A DNA stretch of 19,233 nt from Gemmatimonadota bacterium (GCA_046758745.1 JBHIAV010000050.1:1-19233); one strand, 5' to 3'. Counted from the first letter of the stretch, positions 1 to 9,000 are shown. Made by a program: the numbers.

Positions 1-3000
1 GGCTTCGCCTCGTGGCGATCACGGCGGAGCCGCCTTCCCCGGAGCTGGATGGATTTCTTCGCGAGCAGGGCGCGGATCTCCCGATCTATTACGACCCGCT
101 GAACGAGATTGAGGGCGCCTTCCATTCCTGGAGAGCGCCGTGGCTCTTCGTCGCCGACAGGTGGGGCAGGATCCGCTTCGAGCCCGACGATCTCGATGAT
201 GCCGCACGGCAGCTAGAGGTGCTCCAGATGGAGAGGAACATGGCCGCCTGATTGCCTGGCGCTCAGCCGACCATCATCGCTTCCTGCTGTTCCCTCCGAC
301 GTCTGAATCCGCCACCGGTCGCAGCACCCGAACGTGGCGTTTCTGCTATTCGTCAGCTTTACCGAAACCGTTCACCGAGGAGCTTTCGGTCTCTTAGAGC
401 AGGAGGCGGGGCGAAGTCAGCTCTTAACGAGCCCATCCACAATGGGGAGGAGATCATGAATTCGAAGAGGATCCGCTGGGGCGGGGTCGCACTGATCGTC
501 GCACTACTTTCGCTCACACCGCTCACCTTCTCGCCCGCCGATGGGGTGGCGGAGAACCAGGTGTGCGGCACGAAGACCGGCGGCGGGACGTGCATCCGGG
601 AGACAGCTTCGGTGTGTGCCGGGAAGGGTCTGGAGATGTGGGATTACTACTACGAGCCTTAGGTCGCGCCTCGGAGCCGACCTGAGGCCACCCCGATACG
701 GCCCGGATAGCGGGCGCTTTTATCGCTGATCGCTCGTGCTGCTTCGCCCCGCCACCTGAACGTTGCACGACTCATCAGCGAGGAGAACGAGAAATGAGAA
801 TCATCAAGCTCAGCACCGTACTGTTGGTGACCACGGCGTGGATGGTCTTCGCCGTGTCGCCCAAGACGAAGAGATCCGGAGGACCCCTCAGCCTCGACCA
901 TTCGTCTCTTCACGTGACCGAGCTGCAGGGTACCGTTCTGAGCGAGAGCGACCTGTTCGCTCTCCCCACCGCGATCGCCGTCGTCGAAGATCATCTGGTT
1001 CTCGTGGACCGGTTCGGCGAACACGTCGTGCACGTGCTCAGCAGAGCGACCGGCGAGATCATGGACTCCTTCGGCAGACATGGCGAGGGTCCGGGCGAGT
1101 TCAAGGTCGCGTACTCGATCGATCCCGTTCCCGGCGAGGAGCCGGTCTTCTGGATCTTCGACGCGGGATTGCAACGGCTCACCTGCGTCCGCCTGCATGA
1201 CGCCGACCGAAGGGAGCGACCGTGGGAGAGCCCGATCCTCGAGCTCCATGCTCGAGGCACCGTGACCAATCCGGTATGGGTGAGCGACGACGCGCTGATT
1301 TCCCTGGGCTTCTTCCTGGAGGGACGGCTCGCCAAGCTCGACGCGGCCGGCAACGTCACGGCGATGCTCGGGTCCCTTCCGGAGGCCGACCGCGAGGTTC
1401 CGCCGAACGTCCTGCTTCATGCGTATCAGGGCACGATGAAACCGAGTCCGGATCGCTCCCGTCTCGCCGTCGTCACGAGGCATGCCGGATTCGTTGAGAT
1501 CTACGGCGCGGGCGGAGAGCTCGTGAACCGGACGGGTGGTCCGTTCCCGTTCGAGCCGCGATTCGAGGTGAAGCCCGGCCCCGAAGGCCCGGTGATGGGG
1601 AGCGGCCGGGACCTCAGGTTCGGGTACCTGGACGTCGCGACTACGGGCGACCGCATCTACGCGCTGTTCTCCGGAAGGACGCGCGAAGGATTTCCGGGTC
1701 GGGCCAACTATGGCGAGTACGTCCACCTCTTCAACTGGTCGGGGGAATTCGAAGGCGCGCTCAGGCTCGACGCGGAAGCGATCGCGATCGCCGTCGATGC
1801 GGAAAAGCGAAGGCTGTACGCTGTGCGTCACCTTCCGCAGCCCGGAGTGCTCGCATACCGGCTTCCAGCGGCGGGCCGCCTGTGAGCTCGCGGCGACCGC
1901 GCGGGGCCGGGAGCTTCCTGCGGATTCCGGGCCTGGCCAGGGCACCGGCACACCCGTATGCAAGATCGGAGTCCTTTGTGGCATCTGTATGATAGGGAGG
2001 TGGGGTCCGAAAGCGTGGACGGCTCGCGCAACACCGCAGGTCTTGCGCGTCAGCCACGCAACTGGTGGGAGCGCCGGTGAAAGAGCCTGGGAAGTAGGAC
2101 GCATGGACTTCAAGACGGCCGTCGAGGAGACCGCCCGAGGGGTCAGGCTGGAGGACATCGCGCAGGAGCTTATGGTTCCAGAGGCGCAGATCCGGCAGGC
2201 TCTGCTCGATCCCTCGGACCGCTTCTACCGGCCTCCGCCGCCTACCTGGAAGCGGGCGGTGGCGCGACTGGCGTGGGAGCGCGGCGGGCTGCTGCACGCC
2301 CTGGCGCGCAAGCTGGAGCAAGAGGCTGAGGTAGCGATCACATAGATGTGACAGCGAGCCGCTGCCCGGTGGGCGAGGCGCGTTCCGCGGGTGTCTTTGC
2401 TCGGACCCGACGTGCCGGTGACCCTGCCGGGCACGGCTCGCTGTTCGGATTGACGGACTACGTCTTCAGCAGGTGAAGAGACCGGGGACATTCACCTCGA
2501 ACTGACGCTCCCAGCCTTCGTCGGACAACTCGAGAGCCGGGGCCATCGCCAGCACGCCGGCGTTGGCCACCAGGCCGTCCAGCTCCCAAACTCCTCGGCG
2601 CCCTCCGGATCCAGGTCCGTCGAGATGACGTCCGCCCGCAGCCTCCGCTGGGGGGTGGAAGCACCGTCTCCGATGGGGAATCGAGTGGGTCCCTCCTCTT
2701 CTCGCCAGAGCCGGGCGTGCCTCTGCCGGGGTGGACGGTCCAACTTTAATTTACCGTCGACCTCGGAAGAACGGTGACATGTCCGACTCCAAGCCCGATA
2801 TGGAGTGGAAGCAAGGTATTTGTGGCATTTGCCCGGCAGGCTGCTGGGTGGAAGTAGGCCTCCGCGGCGGCAGGTTGGAGGACATCCGCGCCGACACAGG
2901 CCACCCCCTGGGGTTGATCTGCCGGCGGGGCCAGCACGCCCCCGAGATCGTCTACTCCGAGCGCCGGCTGCGGTATCCCATGAAGCGGGTGGGCCCACGG

Positions 3001-6000: not shown

Positions 6001-9000
6001 TGCAAGTCGGGGTCACCCGACCCCACCCACGTGCTGATCGCCATGGGTCGCAGCACGGCGGACGCCCACTCCGCCGTGCGCTTCTCCCTCAGCCACGATA
6101 CCACGGCGGAGGAGATTGATCAGGTGCTCCATGCCTTGGAGGAGGTGTTGGAAGAGATGGAGACCACGGTACGCTTTCTACCGTGCAAGTAGCCGGACGA
6201 AGCGGCGGGCGGCGCCTGGAACCGTGATGGTGGCCGCCCTGGAGACGCCGCAAAGGTGGCGGCAGCCGGTCACGGGGCGGTCAGAGGCCCGTCAGCGAGA
6301 CGTGACGCGCGAACTTCGAGGCTATCCTATTCTCGGTGCCGAGGGGACCGTTGGCGGGGAATGCGCAATCCCTTAGATGTCGGGATCCCGAAAGAGCGGG
6401 CGACCGGTCTCGAACCGGCGACCTTCAGCTTGGGAAGCTGACGCTCTGCCTGCTGAGCTACGCCCGCGCGTCACCGGCGCGTCCGAGCCGGTGTTTTCCA
6501 TCCGTCCAGTGCTGCAGCCGCGACACCGCCGGGGCGCCGCCTGCGAGCAGGGGTCTTTCCGCACTCCCCGCCCGACGGTGGTGCGTGCGGTATGGGGCGG
6601 GAGGGACTCGAACCCCCGACCTCTGCGATGTGAGCGCAGCGCTCTGGCCGGCTGAGCTACCGCCCCGGATCTTCGCGCCCGCGCCGGAGAAACGATCCGC
6701 CCCAGGCCACGCTGCTCCCGGCGGGCAAGGCACAAAACGGAGCCACGCCCGGGGGCCGGCTCCGCACGCCTCGATTCTACCCTGCGCCGGGAGGGGGTGT
6801 CAACCGAGCGCCGCCCGGGCGCCACGCCAGGCTAGTGCCTCCACGGGGTGAGCATCTTCCTCACGATCGCACCGTTGTCCGACAGGAACTCGCCCAAGGT
6901 CTTCTCCGTGTTGGCCCGGGTGCTGATGTAGCAGGCGGTGCACGTGTTCTGCTTGGTGAACTGCTCCAGCATGTCCTGCTGCTTCTCGAAATACGCCATC
7001 ACCATGGCGCAGGGTGTGAGACGACCGTCCGGATTGATGACGAGAAAGCGGCGCCCGGCCTGGCAACCGGAGATCCCGTCCTCGGTCATGAAGCGGTAGA
7101 ACTTCCACAGCACACGCGGCTGGGTGTAGACGGGATAGCCTTGCCGCCGGAGATCGATCACCTCCTCGATCTTCTCCTTGAGACCGGCGAGCGCCTCCTC
7201 GCCCTGAACGAGACCGCTCCGATCCTGCACTCGGAGGTGCGTGTACACCGAGAAGTTGACCGGCAGACCCCACTCCTTCGCCAGGCGGACGATGTCCGGC
7301 AGATCTCTGTAGTTCCAGTCCGTGATGCACACGTTGAGCAGCACGTCGTCCTTCTCGGTCGCCCGGGCCAGCTCGGGGAGCACCTCGGACATGCGGCCGA
7401 ACAGCCCCGGGATGCGCCGGAACTCGCTGTGGCGATCGTCGGGGAAGTCGAGGGAGACGGAGAGCTGATGCATCCCGGCCCTCTTCAGCCTGAAGAAGCG
7501 CTCCGAGGTGAGATTCGAGGCGTTGGTGACGACGATCATCCAGGGAAGTCCGCCCTTGTTCGTCATCTTCTCTACGATCTCGTAGACGTCGCCGCGCGCG
7601 AGCGGCTCCCCGCCGGAGACGTGCGACACGACGGGCCGGAGCTCCCGACAGATCTCGGCGTACTCGTCCGCCGTGAGGCGAGTCTCCTTGATCGGCCCTC
7701 CCCAGTTGCAGTGCCAGCAGTTCGCCGTGCAGGAATGGGTGATCTCGAACGAGACGGAGAGCGGCTTGTTCCGGAAGCGGTTGCGGATCCCGCGCGCAAG
7801 CATCTTGAGACCCATCGAGCCGGACACGTTCGGCATGCGGACGCCCCTCCTCTCGCTCCTCAGCTCGTCCGGCGTTGCCCGGCTGCTTCGGCTCGCCGGG
7901 CGAGGAGGCGGCGAGCCACCTTCGGTCCTGCCTTGATGGCGTAAGCCAGTATGACGAGCCCGAAAAACCCGAAAAGCAGCCAGTTGGGGATCTCGAGCAC
8001 CGAGCCCGCCCACGCGAGCAGGAGGTAGCGCGGAAACCGCGCCGTGAGCAGGGCGGCCAGGTACTTCCACATCGGATAACGAATCGAGAAGCTCAGGAAC
8101 TTGAACGGGAAAAAGGGAACCGGCACGAAGCCGGTCGCCGTCAGGGTGAGGTACGGGTACCGCATGAACCAGCGCACCGCCGTCGCGTACCACGACTTCT
8201 CTTTGTAGCCCTGGAGGGACTTCAGGTTGAGAATCGGAACGAAGACCGTGTGGTCCATGAACCCGGCGACGAGCGTCCCGACGCTCGCCGCGGCGGCCGT
8301 CATCCACATGCTCCCGTACTTGCCGAAGTAGAGCACCACGGGCTCGTGCGGAAAGACGGAGATCGCGGCATTGGATGGGATCGCGTAGAAGGCCAGGTAC
8401 AGGTAGCTCTGCGAGCTGAAGTCGCGCAGCATAAGAACGAGCGTCACCGCGGCGGTGACGACCATGAGGGCGCCGAAGATCCATACCACGGGACTGAGGC
8501 GCTCCTCCGCCGGCGTGGCCGTTGCGAGCGCCACCCTCGAGGGCCCCGAGCGGCCAGGGATCGGGCTGGATGGCCGGACCGCCTCCGACCGCCCGGTGGC
8601 GGGGCTCTCGCCCTTCACGCCGATCTCCGCGCCGGCGGACTCCGTCCTCCGCTCCCGCGGTGCGCCCAGCTCATGCATTCGCGAACGTTACGGCTCGCCG
8701 AGGAAGCGCGCTACCCGGAGCGATCCGCTGGCCCACCCGGCGAGGAGTCGGCTAGTTTCAAGCCGCATCCGGTCGGATCCACAGCTCCCACAGGAGGTCG
8801 CGAAGAGGTGAGCAGAGCCACGGTGTGTCCGGCTTGCGAGACGCCGCTGAAGCCTGGTGAGCAGACGTGCCAGAAGTGCGGCAAGCCTCTCCCGTACGAC
8901 TTCGACGAGACGGGCGTAGTGTGCACGGTGTGCGGGGCCGAGATCACCGCGTATACCGAGACCTGCCCCGCTTGCGGGGAGACGGGCTACCCCGCGCTCC

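Follow-up and report, generated by a model that had tools for sequence, protein, structure and literature searches.

A fused molybdopterin enzyme and cysteine desulfurase of a Gemmatimonadota bacterium is probably a metallopterin-dependent ergothioneine synthase

The fused gene and its surroundings

The window that we analysed is a stretch of 19,233 nucleotides from a Gemmatimonadota bacterium (GCA_046758745.1, JBHIAV010000050.1). A single open reading frame on its plus strand joins a molybdenum- or tungsten-type enzyme to a cysteine desulfurase; the survey's finding had described such a fusion, and the reading frame, its translation and the Pfam layout bear it out. The features are as follows (CaMES is the Caldithrix abyssi enzyme discussed below).

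2800..6192, plus strand: putative metallopterin-dependent ergothioneine synthase (MES) gene, 1,130 aa plus stop (open reading frame and translation, Pfam layout, fit to the published architecture)
2800..4959, plus strand: N-terminal metallopterin (bis-MGD) module, residues 1-720 (PF04879, PF00384 and PF01568; 2e7z and 2vpw matches; cysteine conservation)
2821..2823, plus strand: codon of Cys8, which with Cys11, Cys15 and Cys41 makes up the Fe4S4 cysteines (conservation among homologues)
3235..3237, plus strand: codon of Cys146, predicted Mo/W ligand, CaMES Cys153 (135 of 135 homologues; aligned with Cys of 2e7z and 2vpw)
4942..5034, plus strand: Ala/Pro-rich linker between the modules, residues 715-745 (translation; pLDDT below 50 at 727-755)
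5041..6192, plus strand: C-terminal class V PLP cysteine desulfurase module, residues 748-1130 (PF00266, 2.4e-86; TIGR03402; PDB chains)
5635..5637, plus strand: Lys946 codon, PLP lysine of the SGHK motif, CaMES Lys952 (135 of 135 homologues)
6001..6003, plus strand: codon of Cys1068, persulfide-loop cysteine, CaMES Cys1074 (135 of 135 homologues)
6070..6072, plus strand: Ser1091 codon (TCC), where CaMES has Cys1097 (homologue alignment)
6184..6186, plus strand: Cys1129 codon (penultimate residue, FLPCK tail), predicted second relay cysteine, CaMES Cys1135 (135 of 135 homologues)
6394..6467, minus strand: tRNA-Gly (CCC), its 3' end toward the MES gene (ARAGORN and Rfam)
6593..6666, minus strand: tRNA-Val (CAC), given for context (ARAGORN and Rfam)

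Pfam places Molybdop_Fe4S4 at residues 1-53, Molybdopterin at 56-486, Molydop_binding at 598-704 and Aminotran_5 at 748-1109. The N-terminal module matched PDB entries 2e7z (2.3e-70 to 1.4e-69) and 2vpw (7.4e-59 to 9.9e-59), an IscS-like chain was matched at about 1e-105 to 3.7e-105, and the C-terminal module scored 515 bits with the NifS model TIGR03402, below its equivalog threshold of 530.75; all of these reproduce values reported earlier. The protein was also said to lack a signal peptide, and indeed the FeS motif, which starts at residue 8, leaves no room for one (residue 7 corresponds to residue 43 of the 2vpw chain). An AlphaFold2 model of the full protein from a 45-sequence alignment had a mean pLDDT of 67 and a pTM of 0.45, with the Mo module modelled poorly and the FLPCK tail that carries Cys1129 below a pLDDT of 50.

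The tRNA-Gly gene is the last element in common with relatives of the same family, and synteny stops there (tblastx). No att-like repeat of the tRNA was seen in positions 1-6700 of the window. (Direct repeats D3 and D4 had hinted at a decayed MES fragment upstream; tblastn returned chance-level matches only, with a best E value of 0.43.)

Correspondence to a characterised family

The fusion had been put forward as a protein of unknown function for which no paper had been found. The family was, however, characterised in 2022 by Beliaeva and Seebeck (PMC9516567); its function is already known, and the present protein is very probably another member, with nothing that opens a new mechanism. The available part of that paper describes anaerobic synthesis of the antioxidant ergothioneine by CaMES, in which an MPT module (residues 1-718) precedes a desulfurase (747-1136); it names 55 genomes with MES, lists CaMES, AbMES, EaMES and hvMES as assayed, and reports that four MES homologues form ergothioneine in E. 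coli (PMC9516567). In the mechanism given there, the desulfurase persulfide is relayed intramolecularly to the metallopterin at every turnover, the acceptor being trimethylhistidine and the product ergothioneine. According to the same text, synthesis is abolished in K952A, C153S is inactive, C1074S and C1135S each yield 2000-fold less product, and the isolated desulfurase module is active (PMC9516567). Exchange of 34S between ergothioneine and trimethylhistidine persists in K952A; therefore, by that account, the MPT site does not depend on the desulfurase for its maturation, and it is each turnover that requires the desulfurase (PMC9516567). When the fusion was first noted, a built-in donor of sulfur to the Mo site had been proposed, and this is in essence the mechanism published for MES. 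The companion idea of a persulfide substrate is not borne out by the paper, in which the acceptor is trimethylhistidine.

The protein resembles CaMES in its two-module architecture, its length (1130 versus 1136 aa), all key cysteine and lysine residues and the association of its family with EgtD. Residues C14/17/21/48, C153, K952, C1074 and C1135 of CaMES correspond, with a constant offset of 6-7, to C8/11/15/41, C146, K946, C1068 and C1129, a correspondence that rests on residue numbers and on the 76% identity to Calditrichaeota MAG proteins. The conservation claimed for these residues was confirmed among 135 full-length homologues: Cys41, Cys146, Lys946, Cys1068 and Cys1129 are present in all 135, Cys11 and Cys15 in 134 each and Cys8 in 133, the remainder being gaps. 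Cys146 also lies opposite a Cys of both solved enzymes, 2e7z and 2vpw, as had been stated. Altogether 227 of the 1130 positions are invariant. A difference from CaMES is found at position 1091, which is Cys in 133 of the 135 homologues, Arg in one and Ser solely in this protein. (The corresponding Cys1097 of CaMES is called strictly conserved in the available text, yet C1097S loses just two-fold; PMC9516567.)

Each of the best 120 homologues is fused, as the survey had it, although their lengths run from 1109 to 1202 aa rather than from 1090, and their identities from 72 to 80% rather than to 81%. The protein clusters with a second MES from the Gemmatimonadota, and this grouping is fully supported. 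The figures of 13 full-length copies in 301 genomes of the phylum and none in 23 of the family were likewise reproduced. The claim of one further, split copy was not: the copy in genome G116 is one 1200-aa reading frame, 66% identical over residues 1-1130. It has two insertions, one of them in the linker, whose length varies among homologues. A further copy, in G018, is interrupted by the contig end. A scan of species genomes gave 445 matching stretches, from which 74 loci were kept; all of them are records of MAGs, which by their titles represent roughly a dozen phyla. Stand-alone relatives are at most 54% identical, in agreement with the earlier figure; the value of 54% is that of P0123, a family of stand-alone Mo modules. 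(P0123 was considered as a split form of MES and rejected: in 34 metagenome loci tblastn (E<=1e-20, minimum 80 bits) revealed neither a desulfurase nor EgtD, and no neighbour is shared by more than 4 of these loci.)

Neighbouring egtD genes and related enzymes

The MES family was originally discovered through its genomic association with EgtD, as the available part of the paper relates (PMC9516567), and the same association is evident in our loci, contrary to the statement that the fusion has no conserved neighbours. Of 75 loci, 38 have an EgtD gene no more than 700 nt downstream of MES. When only those 62 loci are counted whose 3' end is complete and whose flank measures 1200 nt or more, egtD directly follows MES in 37. 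The neighbouring EgtD proteins reach 305-384 bits, the cut-off being 290.9. Within the 301-genome phylum sample, EgtD was found in 15 of 15 MES-bearing genomes (E<=5e-85; 14 above the cut-off), and 13 of the 16 genomes that are positive for EgtD and negative for EgtB bear MES. In MES genomes of other lineages without an adjacent egtD, EgtD was found elsewhere in five of five and EgtB above its cut-off in none of the five.

Two solved enzymes are related to the N-terminal module. The nearest, at 2.3e-70, is acetylene hydratase of Syntrophotalea (Pelobacter) acetylenica (2E7Z), which is likewise cytoplasmic, with an N-terminal Fe4S4 cluster and a Cys ligand. It differs in lacking a desulfurase, in catalysing hydration rather than C-S bond formation, and in having, directly after the second FeS cysteine, a catalytic Asp; Pro12, at least 90% conserved, occupies that position here. 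PsrA/PhsA (2VPW) has in common with the module the bis-MGD fold, a Cys ligand and Mo sulfur chemistry. PsrA works with membrane partners and, unlike the present protein, is exported, its chain beginning 36 residues ahead of the FeS motif as compared with 7 here. NifS/IscS type I desulfurases have the PLP Lys, the loop Cys and 44-50% identity in common with the C-terminal module, which differs from them in being fused, in its added FLPCK tail cysteine and in falling below the NifS cut-off. In Moco sulfurases (Aba3/MOCOS) and FdhD-IscS a desulfurase also gives a sulfido ligand to the molybdenum cofactor; as the available text has it, these act once, in maturation, and the cofactor goes into another protein afterwards, whereas in MES a resident cofactor receives sulfur at each turnover (PMC9516567).

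These likenesses could be taken to mean that the protein is an oxidoreductase, for example a persulfide or polysulfide reductase, whose desulfurase serves for no more than a single maturation of the Mo site or of the FeS cluster. The similarity to PsrA/PhsA (2vpw, and 258 bits with the PhsA model, whose cut-off is 694) and the precedents for desulfurase-dependent maturation cited in the paper, FdhD/IscS and Aba3, would agree with such an enzyme, but the 34S exchange by CaMES K952A speaks for a site that matures without the desulfurase, the association with EgtD would be left unexplained, and our neighbourhood comparison of the loci revealed no conserved electron-transfer partner. We therefore consider an oxidoreductase highly improbable. 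That the 1,130-aa protein is a MES is, in our estimate, about 90% probable.

The host genome and the proposed route

The genome that bears this MES also encodes an EgtD (358 bits against the cut-off of 290.9), located at 19297-20199 of contig C13 and hence unlinked to the MES gene on contig C50, and adjoining it an EgtB (365 bits against a cut-off of 360). This egtB-egtD route is common to 8 of the 23 family genomes. Because the genome has an EgtB-EgtD cluster, the presence of EgtD here is explicable without MES. Four heme-copper oxidase (COX1-family) genes were found as well. The available part of the paper reports MES solely from strict anaerobes, in which EgtB and EanB are lacking (PMC9516567). 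The present host, a Gemmatimonadota MAG, does not match that account, which is a description and not a mechanistic requirement; EgtB, the oxidases and the unlinked egtD all set it apart from the CaMES host. Of the 72 contigs ordered by tetranucleotide distance, C50 is number 36 and C13 number 53. Their GC contents are 0.675 and 0.705, respectively, and the mean of the bin is 0.683; nothing speaks for mis-binning, though composition cannot prove that they come from one genome. As regards the supply of cofactor, the genome encodes MoaC and, besides MES, another bis-MGD enzyme, of the Fdh-alpha type. (A search for MobA with TIGR02665 gave only 22-bit matches, a result of little weight, since only 1 of 14 controls reaches the cut-off of this model and the completeness of the genome is 87%.)

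Because EgtB-EgtD already supplies ergothioneine, it is conceivable that the MES-type enzyme makes another product in this host, such as selenoneine from selenocysteine or a different sulfurised heterocycle. Class V desulfurases often take selenocysteine too, and Ser1091 is unique to this protein. Sulfurisation of other heterocycles by related Mo enzymes is, moreover, a speculation voiced in the available text (PMC9516567). Set against these points are the 72-80% identity to the main MES family with its invariant positions, the fully supported grouping with another Gemmatimonadota MES and the lack of any sequence mark of an altered substrate pocket, and we regard a different product as very unlikely. 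It is extremely unlikely that in this aerobe the enzyme acts mainly in reverse, desulfurising imported ergothioneine or shuffling its sulfur. The metallopterin step is reversible, as the sulfur exchange by CaMES K952A illustrates (PMC9516567, available part), but Lys946, Cys1068 and Cys1129 are intact here, which fits net synthesis, and ergothioneine catabolic genes are absent near MES.

We return, then, to net synthesis of ergothioneine by a MES, for which the following sequence of steps is proposed by homology to CaMES. The C-terminal PLP module would use Lys946 to strip sulfur off L-cysteine, leaving a persulfide on Cys1068; the next carrier of the sulfur would be Cys1129, the last residue but one, which sits on the flexible C-terminal tail. 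Cys1129 would hand the sulfur on, intramolecularly, to the N-terminal bis-MGD module, which has Cys146 as the predicted ligand of its Mo or W centre and probably an Fe4S4 cluster on Cys8/11/15/41, and a metal(VI)=S species would form at that centre. The imidazole C2 of N-alpha-trimethylhistidine (hercynine), the EgtD product, would then attack the sulfido ligand; ergothioneine would be released and the reduced metal re-sulfurised. EanB (rhodanese-type) and EgtB (an O2-dependent sulfoxide synthase) catalyse the same step, the sulfurisation of trimethylhistidine supplied by EgtD/EanA, but have unrelated folds and chemistry, and the EgtB gene coexists with MES here. The MES route does not require O2, and the EgtD gene lies on the other contig beside that of the O2-dependent EgtB. 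MES is most likely the oxygen-independent branch of ergothioneine synthesis in this host.

As to how the two came together, we see an even chance that a vent-associated Gemmatimonadota lineage inherited egtB-egtD and later gained a single MES beside tRNA-Gly, one EgtD now feeding both sulfurising enzymes. If so, the organism would make ergothioneine with or without oxygen, the published restriction of MES to strict anaerobes without EgtB would be contradicted, and the protein would show that Ser can naturally replace the third conserved cysteine. The main import of the finding is one of annotation: the function of the family was shown in 2022, and public records still name its members only 'NifS/IscS' or 'aminotransferase class V'. 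The coexistence of MES with EgtB and respiratory oxidases suggests, in addition, that the range of MES extends beyond strict anaerobes; this would have a modest bearing on the ecology of ergothioneine.

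Architecture and catalytic residues of the fused protein

The survey's finding had presented the fused gene as a molybdenum enzyme joined to a cysteine desulfurase, with its function unknown and literature absent. A protein with matching architecture and residues, called metallopterin-dependent ergothioneine synthase (MES), was in fact published in 2022 (Beliaeva and Seebeck, JACS Au; PMC9516567). The gene and its parts are as follows:

2800-6192, + strand: MES gene, one uninterrupted reading frame of 1130 codons
Residues 1-53: Molybdop_Fe4S4 domain (Pfam)
Residues 56-486: Molybdopterin domain (Pfam)
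Residues 598-704: Molydop_binding domain (Pfam)
Residues 748-1109: Aminotran_5 domain (Pfam)
6070-6072, + strand: codon TCC for Ser1091, at the position of the third cysteine (C1097) of the assayed Caldithrix abyssi enzyme (CaMES)

The survey's database figures were obtained again. The protein scores 515 bits with the NifS model TIGR03402 (cut-off 530.75), its PDB matches include an IscS-like chain (3.7e-105), acetylene hydratase 2e7z (1.4e-69) and PsrA 2vpw (7.4e-59), and the fusion is present in every one of the best 120 database homologues (1109-1202 aa, 72-80% identity). In the alignment, the FeS motif is preceded by 7 residues as compared to 42 in the PsrA chain. An acetylene hydratase is ruled out because Pro12 occupies the position of the hydratase Asp, and assignment as a PhsA or NifS equivalog fails the curated cut-offs.

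CaMES is a protein of 1136 aa in which an MPT module (1-718, 27% identical to 2E7Z) carries the FeS cysteines C14/17/21/48 and the metal ligand C153, and a desulfurase (747-1136) carries K952 (PMC9516567). The substitutions K952A, C1074S, C1135S and C153S abolish production, whereas C1097S causes only a two-fold loss (PMC9516567). In the window protein the residues named for CaMES recur, shifted throughout by 6-7 positions (C8/11/15/41, C146, K946, C1068 and C1129), with the serine at position 1091 as the sole exception. To gauge conservation we aligned 135 full-length homologues, comprising best-homologue proteins of 1100-1210 aa, 14 of the 17 chosen locus translations and the protein of phylum genome G116. 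Cys41, Cys146, Lys946, Cys1068 and Cys1129 are each present in 135/135, Cys11 and Cys15 in 134 and Cys8 in 133, the remainder being gaps; Cys146 lies opposite the metal-ligand region Cys of both 2e7z and 2vpw. Position 1091 is Cys in 133 homologues and Arg in one, and is Ser only in the window protein. (Three loci, L021, L037 and L045, were left out of the alignment because of stops in their translations. Their match coordinates translate with in-frame stops, and two of the match lengths are not multiples of three; the stops may reflect frameshifts, assembly errors or the coordinates used.) Judged by architecture and residues, then, the window protein is an MES that departs from the family only at the third cysteine, which the CaMES data show to be nearly dispensable (PMC9516567).

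Ergothioneine formed in E. coli that expressed any of four MES homologues and was supplied with trimethylhistidine, with Mo or W, and MES was reported in 55 of about 80 genomes of the kind examined (PMC9516567). The isolated C-terminal module of CaMES has cysteine desulfurase activity, and sulfur transfer functions only inside one polypeptide (PMC9516567). Transfer between metallopterin and trimethylhistidine is reversible, and 34S exchange between ergothioneine and trimethylhistidine persists in K952A (PMC9516567). The authors proposed that the imidazole attacks Mo(VI)=S as a nucleophile and that a protein persulfide then re-sulfurises Mo(IV) (PMC9516567). By homology, these steps would run in the window protein on C1068, C1129 and C146. 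An AlphaFold model of it (pLDDT 67, pTM 0.45, tail 1123-1130 below 50) is too weak to address the reach of the tail to the metal. The mechanism is restated in the accessible text of a 2023 review (PMC10903977), and in the accessible part of a 2026 review (PMC13547098) the 2022 paper appears in the reference list only; our literature search, which excluded subscription journals, turned up no subsequent study of the structure or distribution of MES.

EgtD as neighbour and genomic partner of MES

Open reading frames were called in the window, 11 phylum loci and 74 species-genome loci, and were then clustered by BLASTP. The recurring neighbour of the fusion is a single family of about 325 aa, the L-histidine N-alpha-methyltransferase EgtD, which makes trimethylhistidine; five members match PF10017 (1e-98 to 2e-113), and two score 305.6 and 384.5 bits with TIGR03438 (cut-off 290.9). 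It was this neighbour that pointed to ergothioneine and to the identity of the fusion as MES. In a tblastn recount of the window and the 74 loci, 38/75 have egtD no more than 700 nt downstream of the fusion (28 convergent and 10 co-directional); of the 62 loci whose 3' end is complete and whose flank extends for 1200 nt or more, 37 have it there, contrary to the earlier view that neighbours are not conserved. One further locus has egtD 3.5 kb upstream, and in 24/62, the window included, it is absent from the fetched flank.

We counted co-occurrence in the 301-genome phylum sample, whose related members are not independent and which takes in four genomes flagged as unpublished (G057, G097, G157 and G182; MES in 0/4). 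MES occurs in 15 genomes: 13 with a full-length gene, as the survey had reported (with 0/23 in the family Palauibacteraceae), G116, and G018 with a contig-end fragment. The copy in G116 had been called split; it is one ORF of 1200 aa to which residues 1-1130 align (66% identity, two insertions, the same FLPCK end), with egtD 37 nt upstream. EgtD (E 1e-80 or better) is found in 124 genomes, 120 of them over the cut-off (G049, at 286.1 bits, is slightly below 290.9), and in 15/15 MES genomes. EgtB, the O2-dependent sulfoxide synthase of the same pathway (E 1e-60 or better), is found in 111 genomes and in 2/15 MES genomes, namely the window's own and G060. Sixteen genomes have EgtD and no EgtB; 13 of these carry MES, and G167, G171 and G271 do not. 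The check was extended to five MES genomes from other lineages in which egtD is not adjacent (Gemmatimonadota L039, Calditrichota L020, Latescibacterota L070, Marinacidobacterales L067 and KSB1 L052). EgtD exceeds the cut-off in 5/5 and EgtB in 0/5 (best 343 against 360).

Stand-alone relatives exist for both modules. A Mo-module family of about 735 aa (P0123) is at most 54% identical to the N-terminal module, and its 34 metagenome loci (L118-L151) lack a desulfurase gene, egtD and any conserved neighbour. The P0123 proteins are candidates for those further Mo enzymes with a sulfurising role on which the 2022 paper speculated (PMC9516567). Two desulfurases, P0132 (395 aa) and P0135 (385 aa), are 61-67% identical to the C-terminal module and share its FLPCK tail; these could be either pieces of fused genes or genuine split forms.

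A second ergothioneine route and the probable gain of MES

The window's genome (3.08 Mb, 130 contigs, 87% complete, 0.08% contaminated) holds a further cluster and a further bis-MGD enzyme on other contigs:

Contig C13, about 17960-22300 (5961-10313 in locus L097), - strand: egtB-family, egtD and EgtA-like genes
Contig C61, 5321-7249 (locus L003), - strand: formate-dehydrogenase-alpha type gene, TIGR01591 789 bits (cut-off 666)

EgtD on C13 scores 358 bits. Directly beside it lie an EgtB-family gene that is borderline at 365 bits (cut-off 360; for SenA it scores 309, cut-off 420) and an EgtA-like glutamate-cysteine ligase (197, cut-off 371). An O2-dependent route to ergothioneine is therefore present in this genome in addition to MES. 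Within the family, EgtB and EgtD occur together in the same 8 of 23 genomes, and MES in none. Also present are four COX1-family genes, MoaC and the Fdh-alpha type enzyme. (The C61 gene has one in-frame TGA inside its matched stretch, which may encode selenocysteine or arise from a wrongly called start.) Near-identical DNA occurs in hydrothermal vent metagenome runs, all from one study, one of which is possibly the source itself.

The MES gene has these neighbours:

794-1885, + strand: TolB-like six-blade propeller ORF (PF15869, 69.5 bits), upstream of MES
6394-6467, - strand: tRNA-Gly(CCC), first of two tRNA genes that separate MES from the radical SAM gene
6593-6666, - strand: tRNA-Val(CAC), second of these tRNA genes
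6832-8484, - strand: radical SAM ORF, 550 aa

On its right side the window keeps the gene order of the family relatives G058, G135 and G280 (tRNA-Gly, radical SAM, SpoU, Rho, alcohol dehydrogenase; the tRNA match is missing in G135 because the contig ends), and the tRNA region and radical SAM gene are also found in G290. Synteny ends at the tRNA, and 1-6390 has no match in the relatives' loci compared. In the three closest MES-bearing Gemmatimonadota loci, the MES gene is the only element in common with the window. A FastTree of 68 MES sequences places the window protein and Gemmatimonadota L039 together as a pair (support 100); the sequences group by phylum label (24 Chloroflexota rows take 3 changes, against 14.3 when shuffled), and the deep branches are short. 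GC is 0.656 in MES (GC3 0.83) and 0.679 in the remaining window. Taken together, synteny, tree and composition fit the acquisition of this one gene within the phylum, at a time not very recent, by a lineage in which the aerobic route was already present. Neither an integrase at the locus nor an att repeat in 1-6700 was found.

Note that ORFs 6336-6851 (+) and 6373-6825 (-) overlap both tRNAs and are probably spurious, and that no family matches the large ORF on the opposite strand to the propeller gene (659-2158, -). The radical SAM ORF is probably shorter than called: in most family relatives the stop-free match covers only residues ~170-550, with stops upstream.

MES is already known as a kind of enzyme, and the window protein is a further member. 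Of modest interest are its coexistence with EgtB and oxidases in one genome, its wide spread over MAGs from many phyla, and the fact that public databases give MES proteins uninformative names.
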